64,000 nucleotides of DNA from the IMG/VR virus record IMGVR_UViG_3300028603_000025, positions 34,936 through 98,935 of that record; one strand, 5' to 3'. The position numbers were made by a program, and so were the translations under genes. Numbering within the stretch: position 1 is the first letter of the stretch; each line of letters starts with the position of its first letter. Below the pieces are notes generated by a model. The model saw nothing but the letters and a program-made list of their open reading frames with translations. It was not told the DNA's origin and did not search any database. Below, one piece after another: positions 4,397 through 64,000 of the stretch. Source of the stretch: a virus. Lineage: Duplodnaviria > Caudoviricetes.

Positions 4397-4913
4397 TACC
4401 AAGAGACGTTTCTTTATTGACCTTGACCATACGGTCGCAGACTTTAACGGAACGTTTCTATCTCATTTCGGAAAAGGGCTATCTGAGTCTGGGCTGTATA
4501 TGACGAACGAAGACTGGGATTTAGTTAACTCAGAGAAGAATTTCTATCTCAGGTTAACTAAATTCGAATACGCGGATGAACTGGTATCCGAAATCGTTGA
4601 TATGTTTGGTTATGACCGAGTCTTCTTTCTAACCTCAAGTCCTCCTGAATACGAAGGCAATGCTTATCAGGATAAGGTTCTCTGGGTAAGGAATAATATC
4701 CGGTTCAATCTTCCGGTAGTATTCAACAATCAGAATTTCGGAAAGGGTATGTTTGTCGAGAACGGAATCAATGATATACTGTTGGACGATAAACAGAAAT
4801 GCATTCTGGACTGGAGAAGCCAGGGCGGAACCGGTATTCTGTTTGAGCAGAATATGGGATATGATTTATCATGGTTAAGATGTTTTGATTACAGGAGTCT
4901 TACGAATGAGTGA
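4389..4913 (+). CDS. HAD-family 5'(3')-deoxyribonucleotidase-like phosphatase
   Basis: FIDLDHTVADF (DxD), LTSSP, DKVLW, ILLDD and WRSQGGTGILF. Confidence 0.85.
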   Translation: MLDTKRRFFIDLDHTVADFNGTFLSHFGKGLSESGLYMTNEDWDLVNSEKNFYLRLTKFEYADELVSEIVDMFGYDRVFFLTSSPPEYEGNAYQDKVLWVRNNIRFNLPVVFNNQNFGKGMFVENGINDILLDDKQKCILDWRSQGGTGILFEQNMGYDLSWLRCFDYRSLTNE

Positions 4914-5667
4914 TAAGAAGCTTACCGTGGTTATTCCGACCACGTTATCTCCTGACGTATATGATTTACTGGATAACCTGAAAGGAAACGTTCCTGACCA
5001 GACTCTGATTTATCTGGTGATAGATGGTCAGGAACACCTTGACGAAGATTCAAAGATAAAGATAGCGTCGGCCCGAGCCAGATTTCAGGAACGGAACGGA
5101 GTTGAATTATATGAGATAGTTCTTCCTTTCTCTATCGGGAAGGGAGGATGGTACGGTCATAGAGCAATAGCAGGCTTTGCTCATATGATAAATACTCCGT
5201 ATGTTACGTTCATTGACCAGGATAACTTGGTTGATGCGTTTCATTTCGTGACTCTTTTAGAACTGCTTGAGAAATACGAAGACCTTCCGTTTGCTTATTC
5301 TCATCGAACCATCATCGATAAACAGGGCCGTGACATATGTCTTGACGAATGTGAATCGTTGGGATATAAGCCTATCATGGGTAATGAACAGAACGGCTAT
5401 CTGGTTGATACCTCGTCGTGGGTATATAGAAGACAGTTCATTGAACAGAACGGACATATCTGGCACCATGGGTGGGGAGCAGACCGAAGGTTTACTATGG
5501 CAGTTCGTAATGGGGTCGGTCCAGAAATGATGGAGAAAGCATGTACCAAACTCCCGTCATTATTATACAGGGTAGCAGGAAACGCAAATTCAGTGACCCC
5601 TGAATTCTTTATAACCGGAAACTCAAAAATTAAACTTCTGGAGAACAAAAATGTCAGTCCTGATTAG
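4906..5667 (+). CDS. family 2 (GT-A) glycosyltransferase
   Basis: LTVVIPT, LVIDG, FIDQDN (DxD), VDTSS and GWGADRRF; start moved to the ATG at 4906 behind an AGGAG RBS. Confidence 0.85.
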   Translation: MSDKKLTVVIPTTLSPDVYDLLDNLKGNVPDQTLIYLVIDGQEHLDEDSKIKIASARARFQERNGVELYEIVLPFSIGKGGWYGHRAIAGFAHMINTPYVTFIDQDNLVDAFHFVTLLELLEKYEDLPFAYSHRTIIDKQGRDICLDECESLGYKPIMGNEQNGYLVDTSSWVYRRQFIEQNGHIWHHGWGADRRFTMAVRNGVGPEMMEKACTKLPSLLYRVAGNANSVTPEFFITGNSKIKLLENKNVSPD

Positions 5668-5866
5668 AGCAGAAGATGCACGCAAAAAGGCTTTACGATT
5701 CATTGATTCAAACTTCAAACAGTTGTTGTTTAACGCTATAGAGAACGGAGATCTGTTTCTCATGATTTCGGAACCATACTGGCCATCTGAAGAATTGTTA
5801 GTAGAACTGGACAATCTCGGATACTCTATTTATCAGGACGGAGATACCCTGGAGATAAGCTGGTGA
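5651..5866 (+). CDS. hypothetical protein
   Basis: 71 aa ORF with GGAG RBS, overlapping both neighbours. Confidence 0.6.
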   Translation: MSVLIRAEDARKKALRFIDSNFKQLLFNAIENGDLFLMISEPYWPSEELLVELDNLGYSIYQDGDTLEISW

Positions 5867-6693
5867 TAATCATTACCGGAGTCGATGGTTTTATCGGAGC
5901 ATATGCCGCCAATACCTTCAAGAATGCAGGATATCGCGTTCTTGGGTTTGGTCAGAACTCGGTCAAGTCAGTAGGATTCTATGTAGATAGATATAAGACT
6001 GATATAAAAGCCATCCTCCATTTTGGAGCAATATCGTCAACCGATTCCACGAACCAAGAAGAAGTATTCAAATGGAACGTGGAATCGACTATAAATGATA
6101 TCCTTTATCCGGCTCAGAAGTATAATATTCCTATACATTTTGCTTCTTCGGCGTCTATATACGGTAACGTATCAAAGTATTGGTTTACAGAAACCGATGA
6201 GCCGAATCCGAACAGTATATATGCCGAATCAAAACTGACGTGCGAAACCGTTCTGAGTCTGTACGAGAAAGCATTCATATTCCGATATTTCAACGTCTAT
6301 GCCGATAATCCCAGATGGGAATGGCATAAACATCAGCCTTCTCCCCATACAGGATTCGTTAAGCAGCTATCCACCCAAGGAATAATAAGGCTGTTTGATG
6401 GATCAGAGAATATCTATCGAGATTTCGTTAACGTCGTAGACGTCGTGGAATATCATCTTGAATTCGTCAAGAGGTCTCATAAACCGGGCATCTATAACGT
6501 CGGATCAGGAAGTTTAACCTCGTTTCAGGAAGTAGCTATTGACGTCTTAAATAAGTTCGGGTATTCTCCTGTTCTTATAAGAGAGATAGCGTTTCCGGAA
6601 AAGCTGAAGAAATACTATCAGTATCGGACGCTTGCAAATATAAGTAAGATAACACAGGAGATTCTATATGATTTTGGTAACAGGCTGCTTTGA
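5863..6693 (+). CDS. hldD: ADP-L-glycero-D-manno-heptose 6-epimerase-like (extended SDR)
   Basis: IIITGVDGFIG, HFGAISST, ASSASIYG, YAESK (YxxxK), RYFNVY, RDFV and YQYRTLANISK. Confidence 0.88.
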   Translation: MIIITGVDGFIGAYAANTFKNAGYRVLGFGQNSVKSVGFYVDRYKTDIKAILHFGAISSTDSTNQEEVFKWNVESTINDILYPAQKYNIPIHFASSASIYGNVSKYWFTETDEPNPNSIYAESKLTCETVLSLYEKAFIFRYFNVYADNPRWEWHKHQPSPHTGFVKQLSTQGIIRLFDGSENIYRDFVNVVDVVEYHLEFVKRSHKPGIYNVGSGSLTSFQEVAIDVLNKFGYSPVLIREIAFPEKLKKYYQYRTLANISKITQEILYDFGNRLL

Positions 6694-7081
6694 TATTATT
6701 CACCGAGGCCATATTGAACTATTCGAGTACGCAAATGTCTTAGCTAAGAGAGGAGAATATTCGGAACCGATATTCGTCTTGGTTGACTCCGATGCTCGAG
6801 TAAAACGCAATAAAGGAATCGAGAGACCTGTAAATAATCAGGACGATAGGAGATATGTCTTATCCGGAATGAAAGGACTTCAGGCGTCACGGATAATGAT
6901 TTTCGATACTGATGAAGAACTAGTTGACGTCTGTGGAGATTTTAATCCCTTGAGAATAGTCGGCTCAGATTACAAAGGCCGCACGATTATCGGGGGAGAA
7001 CACTGTAGGAAAATCGAATATTTTGAAAGACTTGAAAATTATTCAACCACAAAAACAATCAATGAACTTACTAAAGCCTGA
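6668..7081 (+). CDS. heptose-1-phosphate nucleotidyltransferase (HldE/RfaE domain II)
   Basis: TGCFDIIHRGH (HxGH), DSDARVKRNKGIERPVN, VGSDY and YSTT. Confidence 0.88.
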   Translation: MILVTGCFDIIHRGHIELFEYANVLAKRGEYSEPIFVLVDSDARVKRNKGIERPVNNQDDRRYVLSGMKGLQASRIMIFDTDEELVDVCGDFNPLRIVGSDYKGRTIIGGEHCRKIEYFERLENYSTTKTINELTKA

Positions 7082-7916
7082 AGAAGTATTAATAATCGGG
7101 GATACCTGCCGGGACCATAATCTAATCGGGGAAGTATCCGGTTTGTCGCCCGAAGCCCCGATTCCTATTTTAACCAATCCGCGACATGACCTGAGTCTAG
7201 GTATGTCGTACAACTTTGTCCGTAATCTGGAAAGGTTCTTTAAAGGTGTTCCGATTCCTGACGAGAACCTGTTGTTTAGCAAACATCCTTCTGATATCTG
7301 GAACTACATGGATGAACGTTCCGGGCAGAAACTGTTACGAGTAGACAAGATTAATAAACTGTTTCCTGAAGTGTTAACATTTGATAAGGTGTCTCAAAGG
7401 GTTCATGATAAAATCAAGGTAATCATTGCGATTGACTACGATACCGGGTTCCTGACCAGTTCGCTACTTTCTGAGATAGCGGTTCAGTACGGTTCCTCAA
7501 AGTATCTGTATATTGATACCCGGAAACCGAATCTGACCCACCTTCAGGGATGGAAGATAAAGATTAACGATATCGAGGCCGCAAAAGCAAGGAAGGCAAC
7601 CAAGGGATTCGATGACCTTGATTTAATCGTGACCCACGGTAAAGAAGGTTCAGAAACACATGACCTGTTTGTTCATCAGAAGAATAAAGTAGATGCGCGG
7701 GACGTAACCGGGTGCGGAGAAACCTGGTTAGCTACCTTCATTTATATGTACCATTCTGATGATATCGTTAAGGCGCTGACTTGTGGTCAGCATGATTTGG
7801 AAGAAGTAATGAACCTCGCCAATCTTTCAGCATCGATTACTGCATCACACGTAGGAACGTATGCGCCAACCGTAAAAGAAATAGTTGATTTGTATTTGAA
7901 GACCAAAGGAGTTTAA
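7062..7916 (+). CDS. heptose-7-phosphate kinase (HldE/RfaE domain I, PfkB family)
   Basis: LIIGD, LSPEAPIPI, QKLLRVD, DYDTGFL, KIN and DVTGCGETW (cf. DVTGAGDT). Confidence 0.85.
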   Translation: MNLLKPEEVLIIGDTCRDHNLIGEVSGLSPEAPIPILTNPRHDLSLGMSYNFVRNLERFFKGVPIPDENLLFSKHPSDIWNYMDERSGQKLLRVDKINKLFPEVLTFDKVSQRVHDKIKVIIAIDYDTGFLTSSLLSEIAVQYGSSKYLYIDTRKPNLTHLQGWKIKINDIEAAKARKATKGFDDLDLIVTHGKEGSETHDLFVHQKNKVDARDVTGCGETWLATFIYMYHSDDIVKALTCGQHDLEEVMNLANLSASITASHVGTYAPTVKEIVDLYLKTKGV

Positions 7917-13385: not shown

Positions 13386-13470
13386 AAAGGTAGGTAAAAG
13401 AAAGGTTTATGATATATCAGTTAAGGAAGTGGAACATTACATTTTAGATAACGGGGTAGTGTCCCATAAC
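13366..13470 (+). mobile_element. split intein C-fragment (IntC) in UvsX
   Basis: Block F VYDISV and block G SHN, with Thr as the +1 residue; basic. Confidence 0.93.
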
Positions 13471-13842
13471 ACTTCTGTTCAATACAGCCCAAATTCGGTT
13501 TTCTTTGTCGGAAGAGAACAGGTTAAAGAAGGAACCCAGGTAGTCGGATACAAATTTAACCTTACGATAGAGAAATCCAGACGGGTGCGGGAGAAATCAA
13601 AACTACCAATTGAGGTATCATTTGAAGAAGGCATCAACAAATGGTCTTCCCTTCTGGATATCGCCCTTGAACTTGGTCTGGTAATCGCACCGACTAAAGG
13701 ATGGTATTCCCGGGTAATCGAAGGCGTGGTGGAAGAAAAGAAATGGCGGCGGAAGGATACAGATAATAACGATTTCTGGGATGTATTATTGGAGGACCCT
13801 GAATTTGAAGCAGGAATTAACAAACTGTATCGTTTAGAGTAA
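13366..13842 (+). CDS. uvsX: split-intein C-fragment (35 aa) fused to UvsX C-terminal part (123 aa)
   Basis: MKIAKIEKVGKRKVYDISV...NGVVSHN then TSVQYSPNSVFFVGREQ, EKSRRVREKS, GGI-like EGINKWS and PTKGWY; own GAGGAG RBS at 13350. Confidence 0.95.
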   Translation: MKIAKIEKVGKRKVYDISVKEVEHYILDNGVVSHNTSVQYSPNSVFFVGREQVKEGTQVVGYKFNLTIEKSRRVREKSKLPIEVSFEEGINKWSSLLDIALELGLVIAPTKGWYSRVIEGVVEEKKWRRKDTDNNDFWDVLLEDPEFEAGINKLYRLE

Positions 13843-13851
13843 TAAGAGTTG

Positions 13852-13889
13852 ACAGGTCGATAAAGTTTACTATTCCTTCATCGACCTGT
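13852..13889. terminator. inverted repeat after uvsX-C overlapping a TTGACA hexamer
   Basis: acaggtcgat (13852-61) and atcgacctgt (13880-89) form a perfect 10-bp stem. Confidence 0.45.
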
Positions 13890-13969
13890 AGGAGAATAAA
13901 AGAGACAAAGAGACAAAGAGTGTGCGTTAAACAATCAGGAAGAAAAATATTAAACAAAAGGAAATTAAC

Positions 13970-14869
13970 ATGAAATACGGCATTCCTTACATGGGAAGTA
14001 AGCGAGCTATCGCTGGCAAACTAATCTCTTTTATGAAAGAACGACATCCCAATGCAACACACTTCTATGACTTATTTGGTGGAGGTGGCGCCATGTCTTT
14101 TGCTGCATTAGAAGCTGGGTTGAACGTACATTACAATGAGCTAAATACAGCAATTGTAGAATTGTTAAAGAAGATTCAGACAGATGGTGTTACTCCTGAG
14201 TTTTACGAGTGGGTGTCAAGAGAACAATTCCATAAACTAAAAACAGGAAATGATTGGAAAGCTGGTGTTATACAGACGTGTTGGAGCTTTGGTAATAGAG
14301 GAGACGACTATTTGTATAGTGAAAAGAACGAAGCTTTAAAATATCCTATTCACATGCTTATCGTACATCCTTGTGAAGAGCATTTGTCTATTGTAAATAA
14401 TCTTTTTGATGGTTGTATCCCCGAGGATGTGTTGCATTTACAAACAATCAATGAAAGAAGGTCGCTTGTTACAAAAATATTGAAGAAACGTGTTGATCAT
14501 TTCCAATTGCAGCATTTAGGAGCAGTTAATAGACTAGAACATTTAGAGCAATTAAACAGATTACCTAAAGGATACGTTCCTTTCACTATCACAAACGAAA
14601 GCTATGAAAATGTAAACATCACATCTTCCCCCGAAGAAACAATTGTGTATTGTGATATCCCTTATGCTGATACGAGAAAATACATATTAGGTGCATTCAA
14701 TCAACATGCGTATGCAGAATGGGCCACATCATCTAAATATCATGTGTACACTTCTAGCTACAACATTGACATGCCTTGTGTTTATCAATTAGATAAACGA
14801 TGTACATTTTCATCAACAAACAACTCCAAAAAAACAGTAGAAAAGCTATTTTACAATAAAAGACATTAA
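13970..14869 (+). CDS. Dam-like (D12 class) DNA adenine methyltransferase
   Basis: PYMGSK, DLFGGGGAMS, YNELN and YCDIPY (DPPY variant); more AT-rich than its neighbours. Confidence 0.85.
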   Translation: MKYGIPYMGSKRAIAGKLISFMKERHPNATHFYDLFGGGGAMSFAALEAGLNVHYNELNTAIVELLKKIQTDGVTPEFYEWVSREQFHKLKTGNDWKAGVIQTCWSFGNRGDDYLYSEKNEALKYPIHMLIVHPCEEHLSIVNNLFDGCIPEDVLHLQTINERRSLVTKILKKRVDHFQLQHLGAVNRLEHLEQLNRLPKGYVPFTITNESYENVNITSSPEETIVYCDIPYADTRKYILGAFNQHAYAEWATSSKYHVYTSSYNIDMPCVYQLDKRCTFSSTNNSKKTVEKLFYNKRH

Positions 14870-38361: not shown

Positions 38362-38547
38362 ATGTTATTTGAACTTGCACGATTTATTATCTGGTCTGTG
38401 AAAGGATCATACGGCGCTGTTGTAAACCGTAAACGACATATCGAAAACGCCAAAGGATTGCTGTTACTTGCATTACGAGGCTTGATTTATCTATGCGTGT
38501 CGGCAGCGGCTCTTAATGTCCTAACCGGATGGGGAATAATAAAATGA
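38362..38547 (+). CDS. small membrane protein
   Basis: GGAG RBS; hydrophobic C-terminal half. Confidence 0.55.
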   Translation: MLFELARFIIWSVKGSYGAVVNRKRHIENAKGLLLLALRGLIYLCVSAAALNVLTGWGIIK

Positions 38548-38792
38548 TAAACACTACAAGTAGCACAAATATGGATAATGAAAATTATTGGTATGAGTCA
38601 TATGCTGCATATTCACCTAAAGATAGTGGATGGATAGCAGGAGTATTTATGACTGCTCAGACAACTACTCAATGTATTTGGGTAGAGCCAGAGATTATCT
38701 ATTCAACTAAGTATCATGCCAAGATAGTAGCTGAGCAACAAATTATTAGATTACTGGCTATACAAAAAGAAGAATGTCAATGGATATTGTAA
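38544..38792 (+). CDS. hypothetical protein
   Basis: ATGA overlap. Confidence 0.55.
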   Translation: MINTTSSTNMDNENYWYESYAAYSPKDSGWIAGVFMTAQTTTQCIWVEPEIIYSTKYHAKIVAEQQIIRLLAIQKEECQWIL

Positions 38793-39304: not shown

Positions 39305-39329
39305 CGTAAAGTAAACAAGGAGAAATAAA

Positions 39330-39635
39330 ATGTTAATAAGTAGCCAACGTTGGCTGGACGATGATACAGTACAAGCCAAGCGTGTGTGGAAAGACTACGT
39401 CGTGACCGTCTCGCCTGAGTTCGAAATCGACGGTATTGTGATGCAGGCAATTATTGATGGTCATCACGCACTTGCAGCAGCCAAAGCAGATGGGGTGGTT
39501 CCTGAAATAATAGTTGCTACCAAGCGGGATGATGACAGGGTTGCATTGATTGAAAAATCAATCGATGACTTCCTCATTATGTGGTATCTCGATTCTGATT
39601 GGTATGATGTCGAAACGGGTATACCAATTTTTTAA
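39330..39635 (+). CDS. ParB/Srx-like domain protein
   Basis: IIDGHHALAAA motif; AAGGAG RBS. Confidence 0.65.
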   Translation: MLISSQRWLDDDTVQAKRVWKDYVVTVSPEFEIDGIVMQAIIDGHHALAAAKADGVVPEIIVATKRDDDRVALIEKSIDDFLIMWYLDSDWYDVETGIPIF

Positions 39636-53025: not shown

Positions 53026-54825
53026 CTAATCCATTACATAAACATTCTGTCCGCAATCCCATACCTTATACCACCCGTTTAACATCGCGTTCTCTTCTTC
53101 ACTCAATTCAAGATCAAATCGTTTCATGGTTTTTTCCTGATTCTTCTTACTCATCTGCAGACGATGTTTTCTTTGCATATTTTTGTTGACGTAAAAATAA
53201 CCAGGCTTCGTCCTGTTGATCAAAGCAAATCCGATTTTCTCGTAAAATCCGCTATCACCCCTTGTCCTATTGCTATAACTCATAATCGATGATGGCGCAT
53301 ACTCTTCCCTGAATTTCTTTAACATCTTACCTCCGGCTCCGACCACGCTATAATTCATTTTGTTGGCGAACCGAATCATCTCCCATTCATATTTCTTATC
53401 AAATCTCGGTTTTCCGAATGTCATGACCGAGACAAGTTTATCTTCATAAAAGAGCCCATAATTAACTTTTGTATTGATTGCTCCTTGCAAATGGTTCATT
53501 TCCAGAAAACCAGATACTTCTCGATACAGTAGTTTTCTCAACTCACATTTTCTGGCGTAGATACGATTGCTTGTCTCGCCAAGAATGGAAGATAACATGG
53601 ATTCCACCAATGCCCGTTTGTTCTTCCATTCGTCCTCAAATACATGAACTAACCTGATTCCCTTTGATTCACATTCTTTAGTTTTCTCAAGATGGTAACT
53701 AGAATCCTTGAATTTGGAGCTATGCCAATATACACCATTAAACTCAATAGCTATTTTCTTATCGGGAATGTAAATATCCAGTTCCTTTCCTCCAAGAACT
53801 CCCCTGTCATTTTCTATCAAATCTATTCCGAGCGCATTAATGAAATCTATCAATTCCTTTTCTGGGTGGGAATACGGGTTCTTAATAGGAGGAAAGCAAA
53901 TAGGACATGTCGGGATATTCCCGTCCTCAAAATAATCAGAATACTCAGTCTGGCACTCCGCGCATCGAAACTCGAATCTGTAATAACGCTCTTTAGTATC
54001 CACGTACTCTTTTTCCTCGAACAGAAAGACGTGAGTATCTTTCAAGGCTCTTTTTCTTCTTTGATACGAATTAGCCTTTTTTGAGTTTCTTGCTCTATCT
54101 GAAATACCATGCGACATAGACACATTCTCGACCCCGTATCTCTCGATATTAGTCTCTTTCTGTCTAAGTAATACCTCTTCAGTCTGAAGATGGTGTTCAG
54201 TCCCGTATTTCTTTAGATTCGTCTTCTTTGTTTTTTCGTGTTTATCTTCAGATTGTAGGTAATGGTCTACTCCGTATTTCTCTCGACATGTACTCTTTAC
54301 TGCATCCGAAAACTTCTTGGTCTTTGAATAATAATCAACCCCGTATCTATCCATACAGGTTTTCTTATACTTTTCTCTTATCCTCTTCCATTCTTCTTCG
54401 TTCGTATTTGCTTTGGTCTCCTTGATTTTGGTTTTAAAGTCTTCGTGTTTGCTATAATGTTCTACACCGTACTTTTCAACAATAGACACCTTCAATCTTT
54501 CTTTGATGATGTCGTTCTGCATAGGATTGGTGACTCCGTACCTATCCATGCATGTTTTCTTTGCTTTTTCCTGACCTTCTTTGATTGCACAGCCGGAACA
54601 TAGTTTGTTATATCCCTCTGACATGGACAAAAATCTGGTTATTGGTTCTCCGCATGAACACAAAGGCCGCTCGTCCATATCATGTAGTAATAGGTACGCT
54701 TTCTCTTTAGTTGATAAGTCCCGGCCATCGTCCTTGAAGAACTCTTCTATTTCTTTAGAGCGTTCTCCCCGAAGCCTTCCCAGCTTGTTGATATATTTTG
54801 ATTTGAATTCTTCTTTTTTATCCAT
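53026..54825 (-). CDS. Hef-like free-standing homing endonuclease
   Basis: About 6 KTCxxRYGV repeats, zinc ribbon, ELDIYIP..IAIEFNGVYWHS, IYARKC, NHLQG and WDCGQ; between gp18 and gp19. Confidence 0.82.
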   Translation of the reverse strand: MDKKEEFKSKYINKLGRLRGERSKEIEEFFKDDGRDLSTKEKAYLLLHDMDERPLCSCGEPITRFLSMSEGYNKLCSGCAIKEGQEKAKKTCMDRYGVTNPMQNDIIKERLKVSIVEKYGVEHYSKHEDFKTKIKETKANTNEEEWKRIREKYKKTCMDRYGVDYYSKTKKFSDAVKSTCREKYGVDHYLQSEDKHEKTKKTNLKKYGTEHHLQTEEVLLRQKETNIERYGVENVSMSHGISDRARNSKKANSYQRRKRALKDTHVFLFEEKEYVDTKERYYRFEFRCAECQTEYSDYFEDGNIPTCPICFPPIKNPYSHPEKELIDFINALGIDLIENDRGVLGGKELDIYIPDKKIAIEFNGVYWHSSKFKDSSYHLEKTKECESKGIRLVHVFEDEWKNKRALVESMLSSILGETSNRIYARKCELRKLLYREVSGFLEMNHLQGAINTKVNYGLFYEDKLVSVMTFGKPRFDKKYEWEMIRFANKMNYSVVGAGGKMLKKFREEYAPSSIMSYSNRTRGDSGFYEKIGFALINRTKPGYFYVNKNMQRKHRLQMSKKNQEKTMKRFDLELSEEENAMLNGWYKVWDCGQNVYVMD

Positions 54826-57689: not shown

Positions 57690-58436
57690 CTACCATCTAT
57701 CATCCTGTTCGAAGATATTTGCGAACCAACCACTTATTCCCGATCGACAATTATCATCGGGAGTAAAATGAATAACTGAAATATCCTGGTGGTGTATATT
57801 CGTTAACGTATCGATAAGCATCCGAAGTCCGTTCTTCCCTGGTAGCGCTGACTGAATCGGGTCTCCTGCTATGATTAACTGGCTACCATCCTCCAGTCGA
57901 GTAACTAGTGCCTTGACTTGTGCAGGAGTGGCGTTCTGAAGTTCGTCTGCCAACACTATGGTTCTATCATTGAATGATAAACCTTGAATTTTCTCAATAG
58001 GGACGATATTGATTCCCGAAATGTCCCTGAATAGAAGGTCATCTGGAGTGTTCTTTAATGCAGCCTGAAGAACATTTCCGCCTAAATACCGCTTAAATTT
58101 AAGTAACATGGACATCACAAACGGTAATAGCTTCTCAAAGTCAGATCCCGGAACCGCGCCGTAATCCTTCCCCAGATGTTGATAAGGTCTTGTAATCACC
58201 ACGGTATCCAGCTTACCTTCACGCCATAGCTTGGCGGCCCAATACGACATTAGTTCAGTTTTTCCTGTACCCGCACTTCCTGATAGGATGACAATCTGTT
58301 TCTGTGCAAAAGCTTGTAATGCTTGTTTCTGGGCCTCGTTCTTTGCAATCAGTGGGGGAATGAATCTGGATTCCTGGAACTTTTCTTTAATTTTGCGCAT
58401 CTTTGTCGTTTTTCCTCGAAAGTTATGAACTGACAT
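57690..58436 (-). CDS. phoH: PhoH-like ATPase
   Basis: GSAGTGKT, ITRP, GAVPG, IQGLSF, ADELQN and AGDPIQS. Confidence 0.92.
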   Translation of the reverse strand: MSVHNFRGKTTKMRKIKEKFQESRFIPPLIAKNEAQKQALQAFAQKQIVILSGSAGTGKTELMSYWAAKLWREGKLDTVVITRPYQHLGKDYGAVPGSDFEKLLPFVMSMLLKFKRYLGGNVLQAALKNTPDDLLFRDISGINIVPIEKIQGLSFNDRTIVLADELQNATPAQVKALVTRLEDGSQLIIAGDPIQSALPGKNGLRMLIDTLTNIHHQDISVIHFTPDDNCRSGISGWFANIFEQDDRW

Positions 58437-58449
58437 TTCGGACTCCTGT

Positions 58450-58695
58450 TTACGGATTGCGTGATAGTTTCTGATTCAGATTCGAATAAGGATTCCGGGA
58501 ATGAATTCTGGATAGGACTTCGTTGAACGCTCCGTTGGGTTTGGTTATCCCCAGTCTTACTGGGTCACCTATCGGAGGAGCAGAATCAAAGTATCTTTCA
58601 AGGTCTGGGTTGACAAAGGATTCGTAATCACTTATACTCATTTTCAAGGTTACGATTTCTTGGGTGGATTTGCTTTTGAAAGTGTAGATTGGCAA
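58450..58695 (-). CDS. FmdB-like small protein of T4-like phages
   Basis: TTG start giving MPIYTF; MSISDY...NP, GDPVRLG and FNEVLSRI; TATAAATA at 58752-59. Confidence 0.7.
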   Translation of the reverse strand: MPIYTFKSKSTQEIVTLKMSISDYESFVNPDLERYFDSAPPIGDPVRLGITKPNGAFNEVLSRIHSRNPYSNLNQKLSRNP

Positions 58696-58827
58696 GGGGA
58701 TACCTTTAAGTTGATTTATGGAGTGGTTGATAAAATGGGTTTCTATAAGACTATTTATAAACAAATGCGCGGAGCAATCCCCTTTCTTTTTAGATATGGG
58801 GTCGAGCCGCGCGGTTTAAAATAGTAG

Positions 58828-58856
58828 TTGATACCACATCAACACGCTTGTATTAT
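58828..58856 (+). promoter_or_regulatory. sigma70 early promoter upstream of the hsd cassette
   Basis: TTGATA-17 nt-TATTAT, followed by a cacatcaac leader and GAGGAG. Confidence 0.75.
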
Positions 58857-58891
58857 GCTTCACATCAACAACACAACGAGGAGAAAGAGCA

Positions 58892-59074
58892 ATGAGTCTA
58901 CGTGAAGGAGGTAGGTATGTGATAGATGCATACCTTGAACATGATGTTCTGAAGGAAGGGGACATTGTCACTTGCATAGCAGTGGACCCCATATTTAATA
59001 TACACGGGGAATTCGTTGACCAACGAGGAATCACCCATAGACTCTTTTCATACGATTTACTAGAGGAGAAATAA
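58892..59074 (+). CDS. hypothetical early protein
   Basis: GAGGAG RBS; 60 aa. Confidence 0.65.
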
Positions 59075-59075
59075 A

Positions 59076-60671
59076 ATGATAATCAAACGAATTAAGAACA
59101 GGAACAACAGCATGACCAGCGCCCAACAACGTGCCGAACTCCACCGCAGCATCTGGCAAATCGCCAACGATGTGCGCGGTGCCGTCGATGGCTGGGATTT
59201 CAAGCAGTATGTGCTCGGTGCATTGTTCTATCGCTTTATCAGCGAGAACTTTGCCAGCTACATCGAAGCGGGTGACGACAGCATTCACTACGCAGAACTC
59301 CCGGATAACGTCATCACCGCAGACATCAAGGACGATGCGATCAAAACCAAAGGCTACTTCATCTACCCCAGCCAGCTGTTTGACAGGGTGGTCGCGAGTG
59401 CCGACACCAACGACAGTTTGAACACCGACCTGGCAGCGATTTTCTCTGCCATTGAAACCTCCGCCCTGGGCTACCCGTCCGAGCGCTACGTCCGTGGCCT
59501 GTTCGCCGACTTCGACACCACCAGCAACCGCCTGGGCAACACCGGCAAGGACAAGAACGCGCGCCTGTCCGCAGTGCTCAAGGGCGTGGCCGCGCTGGAT
59601 TTCGGCCGCTTCGACGAGGCCCACATCGACCTGTTCGGCGACGCCTACGAATTCCTGATTTCCAACTACGCAGCCAATGCAGGCAAGTCTGGGGGCGAGT
59701 TCTTCACGCCGCAGCAGGTCTCCAAGCTGATTGCCCGGCTGGCCATGCACGGGCAGAGCAGCATCAACAAGATTTACGACCCCGCCTGCGGTTCTGGCTC
59801 GCTGCTGTTGCAAGCCAAGAAGCAGTTTGACGCCCACCTCATCGAAGACGGCTTCTTCGGCCAGGAACTCAACCACACCACCTACAACCTGGCGCGGATG
59901 AACATGTTCCTGCACAACATCAACTACGACAAATTCAACATCCAGCTCGGCAATACCCTCATCGAGCCGCACTTTGGCGATGACAAGCCGTTCGATGCCA
60001 TCGTCTCCAACCCGCCGTATTCGGTGAAATGGATGGGCAGCGACGACCCGACTCTGATCAACGACGAACGCTTCGCCCCGGCCGGCGTGCTCGCGCCCAA
60101 GTCCAAGGCCGACTTTGCCTTCGTGCTGCACGCGCTTAGCTACCTTTCCAGCAAGGGGCGCGCTGCTATCGTCTGCTTCCCCGGCATCTTTTACCGGGGC
60201 GGTGCCGAGCAGAAAATCCGCCAATATCTGGTGGACAACAACTACGTCGAAACCGTGATCTCGCTGGCGCCCAACCTGTTCTACGGCACCGCCATCGCGG
60301 TGAACATCCTGGTGCTGGCGAAGAACAAGAAAGACACCACCACCACCCAGTTCATCGACGCCAGCGGGCTGTTCAAGAAGGGCACCAATAACAACCTGCT
60401 GCTGGATGAGCATATCGAACAAATCATGGCGGTGTTCGACAGCAAGGAAAACGTCGATCACTTTGCCAAATCGGTGCCGTTGGAAGATGTGGCTGCCAAC
60501 AACTACAACCTGTCGGTCAGCAGCTACGTGGAAGCCAAAGACAACCGCGAGGTGGTGGACATCGCCCAGCTCAATGCCGAACTGAAAACCACCGTTGCCC
60601 GGATCGATCAGCTGCGCAAGGACATTGATGCCATTGTGGCCGAGATTGAAGGCGGGGAGTTGGAGGCATGA
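59076..60671 (+). CDS. hsdM: type I restriction-modification methyltransferase subunit (bacterial start probably 59112)
   Basis: [43 protein letters not shown] and YNLSVSSYV; GC-rich codon usage. Confidence 0.97.
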
Positions 60672-61876
60672 GCGGCAGGAACTTCTTGGAAAATCTGCTG
60701 GATGGGGGGGAAGTGGATTGGAAAGCGCTCGGCTCAGTGGTTGAAACTGTAACAGCGCCTTCAAAGCTAAAAGGTGACTCTTATCGCGCCACTGGGAAAC
60801 TTCCAATTATTGATCAAGGTATCGAATTCATCGCCGGCTACACTGATGAAGATGTAACTCCCGTTGAAGCTGGAGAGTATGTGATTTTTGGCGATCTTTC
60901 CGAGCACATAAAATACGTAGACTTTCCCTTCGTTCAAGGTGCTGATGGACTGAAAATTCTTAGGACTATTTCTGTCAATGCCAAGTACATCTACCATGCC
61001 TTCCTGAATTTCTACACCAAGGAATTGAACTACAAGCGGCATTGGTCAACTGCGCAGCAAACGGTAATTCCCATCCCCTGCCCGGACAACCCCAAAAAAT
61101 CGCTTGAAATCCAGGCCGAAATCGTTCGCATACTGGACAGCTTCACCGAGCTGACCGCCGAGCTGACCGCCGAGCTGACCGCCAGAAAAAAACAATACAA
61201 CTACTATCGCGACCAGTTGTTGAGTTTTGAGGAAGGGGAGGTGGATTGGAAGGCGTTGGAGGAAATTTCTAAGAAAATTTCATCTGGGGGAACTCCGAAG
61301 ACCGGAGTGGATGAATATTATGGTGGGGATATCCCGTGGCTACGCACGCAAGAAGTAGATTTCCGGGAAATATGGGATACGGGTGTCAAGATTACCGAGG
61401 CTGGAGTAAAAAACTCCAGTGCAAAATGGATCCCTGAGAACTGTGTAATTGTTGCAATGTATGGTGCTACTGTTGGGAAAATTGGCCTCAACAAGATTCC
61501 TGTGACCACAAATCAGGCGTGTGCAAACATAAATCTTGATGAGAAAGTTGCAAACTATCGTTATGTATTTCATTTTCTAACAAGCCAATATGAGTATATT
61601 AAATCACTAGGCACAGGTTCGCAGACAAACATAAATTTAGAGATCGTTAAGAAGCTGAAAGTGCCGATCCCTTTTGCTAATGAACCTGGAAGATCGCTCG
61701 CCGAACAAGCTCGCATAGTCGCCATCCTCGACAAATTCGATGCCCTCACCAGCTCCATCACCGAAGGCTTACCCCGCGAAATCGAGCTGCGCCAGAAACA
61801 ATACGCGTATTACCGCGACTTGTTGTTGAGCTTCCCCAAGCCTGCGGAGATCGAGGGCGAGGAGTCGAAGGTATGA
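60668..61876 (+). CDS. hsdS: type IC specificity subunit (two TRDs)
   Basis: [53 protein letters not shown] and [12 protein letters not shown]. Confidence 0.96.
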
Positions 61877-62487
61877 GCGGCAAGAACTTCTTGGAAAAGC
61901 TGTTAGATGGTGCTGAAGTTGAATGGCTGCCATTAGGGGATATCACGAAATATGAACAGCCAACCAAATACCTAGTGGCGATCAAAAGCTACAGCGACGA
62001 ATTTGATACGCCTGTGCTTACGGCGGGAAAGACCTTTGTTCTTGGCTATACGGATGAAGTCGACGGCATATACAAGGCGTCAGAAAGCCCCGTAATCATT
62101 TTTGATGATTTCACGACCGCCAATAAATGGGTTGATTTTGATTTCAAGGTCAAATCTTCGGCCATGAAGATGATCACATCAAAAGATGAAGGCAAGGTGC
62201 TACTTAAATATATCTATTATTGGTTGAACACACTGCCAAGCGATTTTGTCGATGGTGACCACAAGCGCCAGTGGATCGGTAACTATACGAGTAAAAAAGT
62301 CCCTATCCCCTGTCCGGATAATCCGAAAAAATCGCTTGAAATCCAGGCAGAAATCGTCCGTATACTGGATAGCTTCACCGAGCTGACCGCCGAGCTGACC
62401 GCCGAGCTGACCGCCCGCAAGAAACAATACGAGTATTACCGCAATCTGTTGCTGAGCTTCCCGAAACCGGAAGGGGCAGGGGCGTAG
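61873..62487 (+). CDS. hsdS: half-size (single TRD) type IC specificity subunit
   Basis: Same conserved N-terminal and TAEL regions as the full hsdS, one different TRD, and its own C-terminal LLSFPKP. Confidence 0.92.
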   Translation: MSGKNFLEKLLDGAEVEWLPLGDITKYEQPTKYLVAIKSYSDEFDTPVLTAGKTFVLGYTDEVDGIYKASESPVIIFDDFTTANKWVDFDFKVKSSAMKMITSKDEGKVLLKYIYYWLNTLPSDFVDGDHKRQWIGNYTSKKVPIPCPDNPKKSLEIQAEIVRILDSFTELTAELTAELTARKKQYEYYRNLLLSFPKPEGAGA

Positions 62488-62488
62488 C

Positions 62489-62530
62489 ATGGGAAAGACG
62501 CTCGAAGAAATTGCCCGGCAGCTGAGCACG
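62489..62530 (+). pseudogene. N-terminal stub of a PrrC-like anticodon nuclease gene
   Basis: MGKTLEEIARQL directly after hsdS resembles PrrC-family N-termini; the following YAFNGTGKT P-loop is absent. Confidence 0.5.
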
Positions 62531-62778
62531 CCAAAGCTCGTTCAAAGAACGGTCCCGGAAACGACGAAGGTCATGCGGGAATTATCTCGCATAATGAAGC
62601 AATGGAGTACTACCACTATGTTCCTTATCATGACCATTTGGAGGCATCATTGCGTCAATTGAGGGGGCTCTTCCTGGAGGACGAACTCCCAGATAACTTT
62701 ATGCTTTAAGAAGACTTAAGCAGGCGCATGCATGATAGTGATTAATTTGATTGATTTATAAATGATAGGAGAAATGAG

Positions 62779-62961
62779 ATGGTAAATGCTAAAGCACACG
62801 TGACTTACTTTCCCATGGAAGCTAAATATGGGATATCCTTGTGGCATGGTGACACTATGGTTGCTATAGATTACACCTTGTATGATACCAAATGGGATGC
62901 GCTGGCGGCGAGCAATGACCTTAGAAAGAAGGTGTTTCAGGAGAATCAAAATGATAATTGA
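62779..62961 (+). CDS. hypothetical protein
   Basis: AGGAG RBS. Confidence 0.5.
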   Translation: MVNAKAHVTYFPMEAKYGISLWHGDTMVAIDYTLYDTKWDALAASNDLRKKVFQENQNDN

Positions 62962-63256
62962 GCGAGTAAGCGTTGATAGGTTTAAAGCAGCTTTCCATGA
63001 AAAAGGTTGCGATAATCAATTTACGGACAAAGGGTTGAAAATCATATACAAGCATATGATTTATTTAAGCGACGTGATAGGTGAGAATCTGATGCTGGAT
63101 GTCATGGACATTTGCTGTAACTATACTGAGAAATCAATGAGTGATTTTGCCGAAGAGCACGGAATGGCCGAAGATGAAATATTTGAAAATTTTCCGATCT
63201 GCGGGAGCTATGAAAACGAGCAAGGGTTAACAGTGTATGTCTTCGAGCATTCTTGA
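62951..63256 (+). CDS. hypothetical protein
   Basis: AGGAG RBS; F..AF...NQFT.KGL...Y.H...LDV.DICC.YTE pattern. Confidence 0.65.
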   Translation: MIIERVSVDRFKAAFHEKGCDNQFTDKGLKIIYKHMIYLSDVIGENLMLDVMDICCNYTEKSMSDFAEEHGMAEDEIFENFPICGSYENEQGLTVYVFEHS

Positions 63257-63268
63257 TAAGAGGATGAA

Positions 63269-63676
63269 ATGATGAAACCTAAAACTTTAGCTGATGTCGG
63301 TTACGTGTCGAATCACAGAACGTTCATTCGACATCTTCCTCCCGAGAACATTCCTCAGTTCGTATCGGAAACTGGTTACCAAGGCGAGGTCGATTTCATT
63401 TCGAGATTCTTTGAGATTTACAACAGTAAGTCACATATCAGTCTCCGGGATTCTATCATTAGAGATACCAGTCTCCGGGATTCTATCATTAGAGATACCC
63501 CGGCATCTTCTACCCAAGACGACGCCACTTACTGGTATTCCCTTACGCAGCGTGTAGAAAGACTGGCGTGTAAAGCAAACCCGATAGAAAGCGTTATTCT
63601 ACTTAAAGGATTTGACCAGATTATCGGAATAAAGGATTTTGTTTTTAAATTGATTGAAGAAGGAAAGGTGGGATGA
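63269..63676 (+). CDS. hypothetical protein with an internal 30-bp tandem repeat
   Basis: SLRDSIIRDT twice (63439-63498). Confidence 0.6.
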   Translation: MMKPKTLADVGYVSNHRTFIRHLPPENIPQFVSETGYQGEVDFISRFFEIYNSKSHISLRDSIIRDTSLRDSIIRDTPASSTQDDATYWYSLTQRVERLACKANPIESVILLKGFDQIIGIKDFVFKLIEEGKVG

Positions 63677-63784
63677 TTGACGAATCTGGTACTATGGGGG
63701 GTATTAATTTTGTCTAAAGTATTCGAACAGGTTATTCGGATTAGAGATTTTACAAATAACCTGTTCGAGATAGATTAGTTAGGA

Positions 63785-64000
63785 TTAGTCTTCAATGTCG
63801 TCTATCGTGGGAATGAAATCGGACCAACTGTCTGAGCGAATACATTTGTAGACTGAGTTTAAGGAATGAATTCCTCGGTTATCGTTCTTGTTATATTCTT
63901 TCTCGATAGAGAAGAGAGCTAGGGAATGAGAACCTCCTCCGGATATTCCTGACCATGTTCCCGGAACCTGAACCGGACTTAACCTTTCTGTGGTCGTTCC
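63785..64000 (-). CDS. C-terminal end of a second RCC1-repeat protein (partial, runs off the window)
   Basis: The minus strand translates as GTTTERLSPVQVPGTWSGISGGGSHSLAL...WSDFIPTIDDIED*. Confidence 0.8.
   Translation of the reverse strand, partial: GTTTERLSPVQVPGTWSGISGGGSHSLALFSIEKEYNKNDNRGIHSLNSVYKCIRSDSWSDFIPTIDDIED

Follow-up and report, generated by a model that had tools for sequence, protein, structure and literature searches.

EcoprrI and EcoR124I, the described systems closest to the locus reported here, each have one hsdS gene, and EcoprrI-type loci reside in a bacterial chromosome, a plasmid or a P1-like prophage. Association with Hsd proteins keeps PrrC, the anticodon nuclease of such loci, latent, and Stp requires DNA whose EcoprrI sites are unmodified in order to activate it (PMC3014915). 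Phages are also known to carry orphan methyltransferases, among them the Dam enzymes of T4 and P1 and the multispecific Bacillus enzymes, which have no nuclease partner and are presumed to protect phage DNA; orphans of this kind are "mostly Type II", and the phage examples named are single-chain enzymes (PMC12707154). In bacteria, the Ronin system (ronA-hsdS-hsdM) pairs HsdS and HsdM without HsdR, and its HsdMS sequesters a small membrane toxin (bioRxiv 10.1101/2023.04.06.535777). Here we analyze a stretch of 64,000 nucleotides (the window) from an uncultured tailed virus (Duplodnaviria; Caudoviricetes; IMG/VR record IMGVR_UViG_3300028603_000025), in which a cassette of one hsdM and two hsdS genes, with no hsdR, is embedded in phage DNA. 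On balance we favor, without regarding the matter as settled, a recent and real capture of the modification half of a type IC locus, which the phage uses to methylate its own DNA.

The cassette shares with EcoprrI and EcoR124I its HsdM (82-87% identical to the HsdM of prr-type loci, whose genes are arranged hsdM-hsdS-prrC-hsdR), the type IC arms and TAEL repeats of its HsdS proteins, and a prrC start 2 nt after an hsdS stop. Unlike them, it has no hsdR, functional prrC or native promoter, it holds two hsdS genes, one full-length and one half-size, and it sits in a lytic T4-like phage. It resembles the phage orphans in having no nuclease partner in the record, whereas its enzyme is of type I, built from several subunits and with long bipartite targets, and the scars of its capture are still visible. 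The likeness to Ronin lies in HsdS and HsdM without HsdR; the phage cassette, however, is phage-borne, has the order hsdM-hsdS and has no toxin gene adjacent, and a Ronin-like decoy was rejected on the last of these grounds. The features discussed below are as follows (window coordinates).

58828-58856, + strand: promoter-like site of sigma70 type (TTGATA-17-TATTAT, 10 of 12 matches), within a 127-bp divergent intergenic region
58892-59074, + strand: phage open reading frame (ORF) that opens the + strand unit; 60 aa; no family match; GC content at third codon positions (GC3) 0.38
59064-59111, + strand: left junction; start word AGGAGAAATAAAATGATAA with ATG 59076, then donor 5' untranslated region (UTR) in frame
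59112-60671, + strand: hsdM, N6-adenine methyltransferase subunit of type IC; 519 aa if translated from the native ATG and 531 aa if from ATG 59076
60668-61876, + strand: hsdS1, full-length, with two target recognition domains (TRDs); 402 aa, TAEL repeats in the central helix
61873-62487, + strand: half-size hsdS; 204 aa, one TRD, ATGA overlap with the hsdS1 stop
62489-62575, + strand: prrC stub, covering about 29 codons from the N-terminus of the anticodon nuclease PrrC (MGKTLEEIARQLSTPKLVQRTVPETTKVM, compared with PrrC N-termini)
62578-62709, + strand: start-less frame of 43 codons, ending LEDELPDNFML with its stop at 62707-62709; GC 0.43
62779-63676, + strand: downstream phage genes, comprising a 60-aa ORF (62779-62961), a 101-aa gene (62951-63256) and a 135-aa gene (63269-63676)

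The cassette and the missing nuclease gene

The cassette coincides with a 3.5-kb block of high GC at 59.1-62.6 kb of the window. GC climbs from about 0.40 to 0.58-0.63 across 59000-59400 and is back at the phage level by about 62600, and GC3 is 0.81 in hsdM versus 0.38-0.44 in the flanking phage ORFs. The ORF at 59076-60671 encodes an HsdM (TIGR00497, E 1e-194, 648 bits against a cut-off of 243; N6_Mtase, E 3e-118), and its translation shows the S-adenosylmethionine-binding motif DPACGSGS and the catalytic motif NPPY (SNPPYS). Its nearest database proteins are 90-91% identical and are spread over many phyla. Signs of decay were sought in hsdM as stops, private changes and the ratio of nonsynonymous to synonymous substitution rates (dN/dS), and none were found: it has four private changes at columns at least 97% conserved, where 118 relatives have a median of two and a maximum of seven, and its dN/dS against the nearest DNA copies is 0.09-0.17, with bacterial pairs at 0.05-0.11. 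The GC3 of hsdM equals that of high-GC bacterial copies (0.80-0.82) and is about twice the phage value of about 0.40; no amelioration is visible, which supports a recent capture.

Both HsdM and the two-TRD HsdS are those of the type IC family, and an HsdR of the family, with its HSDR_N, SWI2/SNF2 motor and EcoR124_C domains, is missing from the record, so what the phage carries here is the methyltransferase core of a type IC system and not a complete member. No HSDR_N domain or EcoR124-type HsdR was found in the 98,935-bp record, which is classed as linear and of which the window is the final 64 kb (G000:C1:34936-98935, G000 being our handle for the record); just one ResIII match exceeds the cut-off, in a helicase frame of 505 aa that is unrelated and lies 60 kb off. 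A first-pass annotation of the window, made by a model from the letters alone, had anticipated much of this. It placed an abrupt GC increase near 59100, read the cassette as a recently acquired bacterial type IC system, a reading that the unameliorated GC3, the HsdM and HsdS profile matches and the prr-type relatives now strengthen, and saw hsdS genes after hsdM, which are indeed there with two TRDs and one TRD respectively. Its statement that the window lacks hsdR extends to the entire record, and the prrC stub described below shows that hsdR was lost at this locus. The comparison of hsdM by which it hoped to identify the donor, by contrast, gave no donor that could be named, with the nearest HsdM at 90-91% and in many phyla.

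How unusual is an hsdM-hsdS unit without hsdR in a virus? Relatives of HsdM occur in 115 of 50,697 phage records, and the four closest belong to three P1-like phages (Punavirus) and one Klebsiella phage. Downstream, where hsdR would be expected, Escherichia phage phi456 (P1) has a long frame; the complete hsdM-hsdS-prrC-hsdR locus is present on a P1-like IncY plasmid of E. coli; and the 24.5-kb record of Salmonella phage SJ1 holds only hsdS and hsdM, beside transposon genes. Among 80 IMG/VR loci with close HsdM relatives, hsdR is present in 61 and prrC in 16, and 17 are cut by a contig end; of the 63 that can be judged for hsdR, two are without it. A full-text search of the literature found no description of a lytic phage with orphan type I M and S genes.

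One of the two viral loci without hsdR (L070:1-15941, from IMGVR_UViG_3300023296_000494) is itself T4-like, with a T4 RNase H gene at 13423-14316 and a GC of about 0.41. Its hsdM (4433-5980) is 78% identical to that of the window and is followed by hsdS (5977-7206), and no type I hsdR is present in its 15.9 kb; a type III Res gene cut at its 5' end lies 2 kb upstream (GC 0.58; PADLOC REase_III, E 3e-176).

These counts bear on the possibility that the cassette is one half of a complete phage-borne type I system whose hsdR lies elsewhere in the genome, and which would act against competing phages or host DNA. The record is estimated by CheckV to be 59% complete, leaving 41% of the genome unsampled, the great majority of judgeable viral contigs with a related HsdM (61/63) keep hsdR, and P1-like phages carry whole hsdM-hsdS-prrC-hsdR loci. 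In type IC loci, however, hsdR directly follows hsdS or prrC, whereas the operon of the cassette breaks off within prrC, and phage DNA comes next; the 98.9 kb of the record yielded neither HSDR_N nor an EcoR124-type HsdR; and the carriers of whole loci that we examined are temperate P1-like phages or phage-plasmids, not lytic T4-like phages. We consider such a split system extremely unlikely.

Junctions, donor locus and expression signals

The annotated DNA closest to the cassette is that of Paracoccus pKON1 (87.5%), followed by Azotobacter pAcX50f (85%) and Aeromonas plasmids (82-83%). The gene order in all three genera, and likewise in E. coli and Klebsiella plasmids, is hsdM-hsdS-X-hsdR, where X scores as PrrC (PADLOC PrrC, E 1e-147 to 1e-150) and the EcoR124_C domain is present in HsdR. 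At the 3' end of the phage cassette, MGKTLEEIARQLSTPKLVQRTVPETTKVM matches the N-termini of E. coli and Klebsiella PrrC, and the ATG of this stub has the same spacing from the last hsdS stop as in the bacterial loci. The match ends before Walker A, with GTGKT absent, and an intact prrC (about 380-400 aa, a Walker A NTPase with a C-terminal nuclease) is not present. The reading frame of the stub stays open to 62662 in unrelated sequence, and the right junction lies at about 62570-62580. The cassette was thus excised from an EcoprrI-type hsdM-hsdS-prrC-hsdR locus, about 87 nt into prrC. The stub implies that the rest of the operon, including hsdR, was deleted at this locus, and the anticodon nuclease and hsdR were lost in one event.

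Beyond the right junction, phage-like DNA resumes with the start-less frame to 62709, as the first-pass annotation had seen, although it had overlooked the prrC stub at 62489-62575 that intervenes. Judged by its composition and position, this frame is presumably what is left of the 3' end of the phage gene that starts at ATG 59076. Searches of phage records, of the contig and of the family of the 101-aa gene turned up no relative of the LEDELPDNFML remnant. The idea that the remnant is a paralogue of the 101-aa gene (whose protein begins MIIERV) was rejected as unsupported: the family hidden Markov model gives no match, and the likeness is confined to the start word.

The left junction is equally legible. 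Bacterial HsdM proteins begin at residue 13 of the window ORF, that is at ATG 59112, and the 12 codons before it are an in-frame upstream extension behind GAGGAG-N7-ATG. The TAA stop of the 60-aa ORF lies 1 nt ahead of ATG 59076. The start word AGGAGAAATAAAATGATAA, which includes this ATG, occurs five times on the + strand of the window with at most three mismatches, against 0.11 expected (59064-59082, 62767-62785, 62939-62957 at MIIERV, 39318-39336 and 38532-38550), at gene starts where checked, and common start words of this sort could serve as microhomology in gene shuffling. Closer to hsdM the DNA is that of a donor: the sequence upstream of hsdM in Azotobacter pAcX50f matches AACAGGAACAACAGCATG exactly, and the exact identity, across AACAGGAACAACAGC-ATG, begins only 15 nt ahead of the native ATG; for roughly a dozen bases more it is probable. 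Donor 5' UTR is therefore certain from about 59097 and probable from about 59084, and is read as codons 4-12 of the leader. Taken together, the AGGAGAAATAAAATGATAA word, the phage stop before it and the donor UTR identity indicate that the 12-codon leader is a phage start of about three codons plus a donor 5' UTR that happens to be open in frame.

The native hsdM ATG and the native AGGA are both intact, so the fusion would be optional and either start (59076 or 59112) may be used. Transcription is another matter: since only about 15-28 nt of donor upstream DNA are left, the donor promoter is gone, and expression must come from the phage promoter at 58828, which is the sole strong promoter-like site upstream of the cassette. 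No + strand terminator-like sites were found within 58300-64000. A CA-rich, G-poor leader comes after the promoter-like site, in the same style as behind other strong promoter-like sites of the record (G000 25328, 57948, 69639 and 74576), and these promoter-leader sites look like one family. The leaders of the strongest sigma70-like sites, including that at window 58828-58891, end in GGAG. The 60-aa ORF that comes next shows no hydrophobic stretch of helix length in its translation (58892-59074), and so does not resemble RonA.

Earlier claims about this end of the cassette fared unevenly. The resemblance of the hsdM start to that of the gene at 62951 is genuine, and is due to the recurrence of AGGAGAAATAAAATGATAA at 62939-62957. 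The in-frame fusion of 12 codons behind a phage-type ribosome-binding site is likewise present, although only about three of these codons are of phage origin and the rest are donor 5' UTR. The wiring of the cassette to a phage early promoter is supported as far as dependence on a phage promoter goes, whereas its timing class, "early", is presumed.

The two specificity genes and their origin

The hsdS1 product has Methylase_S in two stretches, with a TAEL-type central helix seen in alignment, and its best full-length relatives are 71-73% identical. Its last ten codons (61844-61873) derive from the 3' end of an hsdM gene. They belong to a repeat (D3) in which 60639-60721 and 61844-61926 are 81% identical over 83 nt, and which consists of these ten codons and the following ATGAGCGGCAAG..., repeating the end of hsdM and the start of hsdS1. 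The repeat implies an in-frame join between ...SFPKP of hsdS1 and a second unit of type IC. This second unit comprises the 3' end of hsdM, the half hsdS and the 5' end of prrC, and the ATGA overlap was kept. The cassette is thus a mosaic of two type IC loci. A codon-degenerate search for the join between hsdS1 and the hsdM tail (FPKP joined to AEIEG) in 185,579 species genomes returned one chance match, in an unrelated Flavobacterium gene.

The half HsdS consists of an N-terminal arm, one TRD, one dimerization helix with TAEL repeats (62380-62415) and a C-terminal-type tail, with one Methylase_S stretch; it thus has the single TRD and single helix of a homodimeric half-HsdS. Its residues 1-200 match residues 1-200 of EcoR124 HsdS (7bst_A; E 2e-116 for the whole protein), and it is 74% identical to the HsdS of the prr locus of the E. 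coli IncY plasmid. A further repeat (D1) relates 61070-61244 to 62302-62476 at 83% identity, and together with repeat D2 it gives the half gene the look of having arisen by crossover between two conserved regions, the central one and the C-terminal one.

What might such a protein recognize? Type IC half HsdS proteins homodimerize and read palindromes, as shown for EcoR124I HsdS(delta50), which reads GAA-N7-TTC, for truncated EcoDXXI and for the natural NgoAV (PMC3874165). The half HsdS of the phage has the same plan of one N-terminal TRD and one dimerization helix; unlike HsdS(delta50), it is a natural gene with a proper C-terminal-type tail and is co-encoded with a full HsdS. Its match to the GAA-reading N-terminal TRD of EcoR124 HsdS leads us to predict a GAA-N7-TTC-like palindrome as its target. 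There are 79 GAA-N7-TTC sites in the phage part of the record; compared with other spacings this one is neither avoided nor enriched, which is uninformative.

HsdS proteins with three TRDs were also encountered, in ENA/JGI metagenomes (P0030, P0037 and P0039; about 590-600 aa). Their first two TRDs match those of hsdS1 at 57-59%, and the third is variable.

The in-frame join inside the cassette also bears on whether the insertion is real. A metagenome assembler could have joined a 3.5-kb bacterial or plasmid piece into a phage contig, and the sharp breaks in composition, the closeness of the cassette to the end of the record and the failure to find a second assembly of the junctions in viral contigs would all fit such an artefact. 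Public phage records that contain host hsdMS by error do exist, probably including that of Staphylococcus phage UPMK_1 (L015, GenBank MG543995.1), in which an hsdM-hsdS pair adjoins the serine protease genes splA-splF; we take these to be S. aureus island genes, and the UPMK_1 record presumably contains host DNA. For the cassette, however, an artefact needs two false joins 3.5 kb apart, both leading back into the same phage, with the same start word and composition on either side. The block opens shortly ahead of a start codon, in a frame with no stop, and breaks off within prrC; neither junction has a long shared repeat; and within the block two type IC loci meet in frame at a third join, which is absent from the 185,579 species genomes. 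In addition, the junction-spanning 531-aa HsdM and the flanking phage proteins of both sides are catalogued on one contig of 133,704 bp (JGI/IMG, ENA), which exceeds the IMG/VR record by 34.8 kb. An assembly artefact is, in our judgment, very unlikely.

Function, phage context and significance

We propose that a lytic T4-like phage gained the modification half of EcoprrI-kind loci by illegitimate recombination. The insert would run from about 15-28 nt before hsdM to 87 nt into prrC, so that the promoter, the anticodon nuclease and hsdR were lost, and it would have landed just past the start codon of a phage gene, the second in a + strand unit behind a sigma70-type promoter. Transcription would probably proceed from the phage promoter, with translation beginning at either the phage or the native start, or at both. 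HsdM and the full HsdS would form an M2S enzyme with an asymmetric bipartite site, and HsdM and the half HsdS an M2(half-S)2 enzyme with a palindromic GAA-N7-TTC-like site, such that one HsdM would serve two enzymes and two specificities. N6-methyladenine placed on replicating phage DNA would let the progeny escape type I enzymes of the same specificity in the next host, with no inhibitor needed. The gain of protective methylation by mobile elements is an established "Trojan horse" strategy (PMC12707154). The gene content, the intactness of the genes, the junctions and the lack of hsdR in the record are observed; expression, enzyme activity, target sites and a benefit to the phage are what we infer.

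Several points weigh against this proposal. The exact junction words have no match in 2.9 million viral contigs, no independent assembly of either junction was found, and the cassette lies only 1.3 kb from the end of the window, which is also the end of the IMG/VR record. With an estimated 59% of the genome in the record, there is room for hsdR elsewhere. No donor closer than 90-91% (HsdM) or 73% (HsdS1) was found in databases, so that the host is only a possible donor, and a match to the specificity of a host enzyme is no more than possible. This type IC enzyme may or may not methylate fully unmodified DNA efficiently. Finally, an unameliorated, single-copy insert may be too young for selection to have tested it.

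The last of these points leads to a different account, in which the insert is real and yet a young passenger, neutral or slightly harmful, a by-product of illegitimate recombination with DNA of the host or a plasmid in the course of infection, unselected and due to be lost. The intactness of hsdM would then reflect youth only, in keeping with its wholly unameliorated GC3. The cassette was seen in this phage alone, its junction words are absent from the viral contigs, and a useless stub of prrC is still in place, as is a broken phage gene; the small flanking phage proteins are catalogued from Logan, and the 531-aa HsdM is not. Chance would nevertheless have had to choose its cut points aptly: hsdM and both hsdS genes are whole, and the toxic prrC and hsdR are gone. 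The donor promoter is replaced by an in-frame phage start site, the join between hsdS1 and the hsdM tail also preserves both frame and ATGA coupling, and two successive productive joins exceed one accident. We hold a passenger to be unlikely.

The prrC-bearing origin of the cassette raises yet another option, namely that the phage HsdM and HsdS act on host HsdR and PrrC, instead of on DNA or besides it. The M and S subunits of a PrrC-guarded system would disarm both layers of defense: methylation would avoid restriction without an Stp-like inhibitor and take away the unmodified DNA on which PrrC activation depends, leaving PrrC untriggered, and the phage HsdM/HsdS core may bind host HsdR and PrrC, so that the restriction nuclease is redirected or soaked up and PrrC stays masked. 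The first-pass annotation had already supposed that the subunits might reprogramme or titrate host HsdR, which is pure conjecture. An HsdM 82-87% identical to that of prr loci makes cross-assembly conceivable, and both the latency of PrrC through Hsd proteins, with its activation needing unmodified sites (PMC3014915), and the sequestration of a toxin by Ronin HsdMS without HsdR (bioRxiv 10.1101/2023.04.06.535777) lend it some plausibility. The tRNA-repair route of T4 is not seen in the record: its 98.9 kb gave no match to Rnl1 or to a Pnk-type kinase family, the Rnl1 search having been run without a positive control and with 41% of the genome unsampled. Any such interaction is hypothetical, however, and anti-PrrC serum brings down HsdR (PMC3014915). 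Both halves of this idea, the untriggered PrrC and the direct binding, strike us as improbable. Were it true, the cassette would be a counter-defense that mimics the host's own guard partner. In T4, restriction is inhibited and the cut tRNA is then repaired, and mimicry of this kind would be an alternative to that inhibit-then-repair route.

The phage itself is placed by its neighboring genes. Those around the cassette encode a tail sheath, an endolysin, a PhoH-like protein and a small regulator, and the sheath is about 50% identical to those of T4-like phages of Pelagibacter, Stenotrophomonas, Methylophilales and Sinorhizobium. On the strength of this likeness and of the neighboring genes, the genome is that of a distant T4-like myovirus of about 40% GC, and we treat this uncultured phage as lytic. 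Scans of viral and metagenome data with the flanking proteins returned only distant loci, none of them syntenic. A related phage is known from a Logan contig of 2,484 bp, on which the 101-aa gene is 92% and the 135-aa gene 86% identical. The start of the 101-aa gene is ATG 62951 and not 62882, as many of its 277 homologues align from residue 1.

Three further observations concern genes outside the cassette. The family of the 101-aa gene, 277 proteins of about 100 aa, has a conserved ICC motif and no Pfam or PHROG match. A 599-aa gene resembling HNH homing endonucleases (53026-54825, - strand; phrog_3339, E 3e-133) directly adjoins the tail sheath gene. A Dam-like orphan methyltransferase (MethyltransfD12) is encoded at window 13970-14869, which gives the phage one more solitary methylase, of conventional type.

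Beyond what the first-pass annotation had noticed, the analysis adds the prrC stub, the two-locus mosaic, a half HsdS of predicted GAA type and a leader composed of a phage start and donor UTR. Origin, loss of the nucleases and wiring to the phage are supported by the evidence above, and function is what we infer. The cassette is a rare and well-preserved instance of a known strategy, in which the enzyme class is unusual and the donor locus instructive: a whole multi-subunit type I methyltransferase with two specificity subunits is a rare find on a lytic T4-like phage, and the scars of its theft (the donor UTR, the ten-codon hsdM tail in hsdS, the prrC stub and the unameliorated codon usage) can still be read. 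It offers a dated example, at base level, of how a host defense operon may be turned into counter-defense, with M and S kept and the nuclease and the suicide gene dropped. It would also be a natural test case for whether a self-methylating T4-like phage can pass PrrC-guarded restriction without triggering it.

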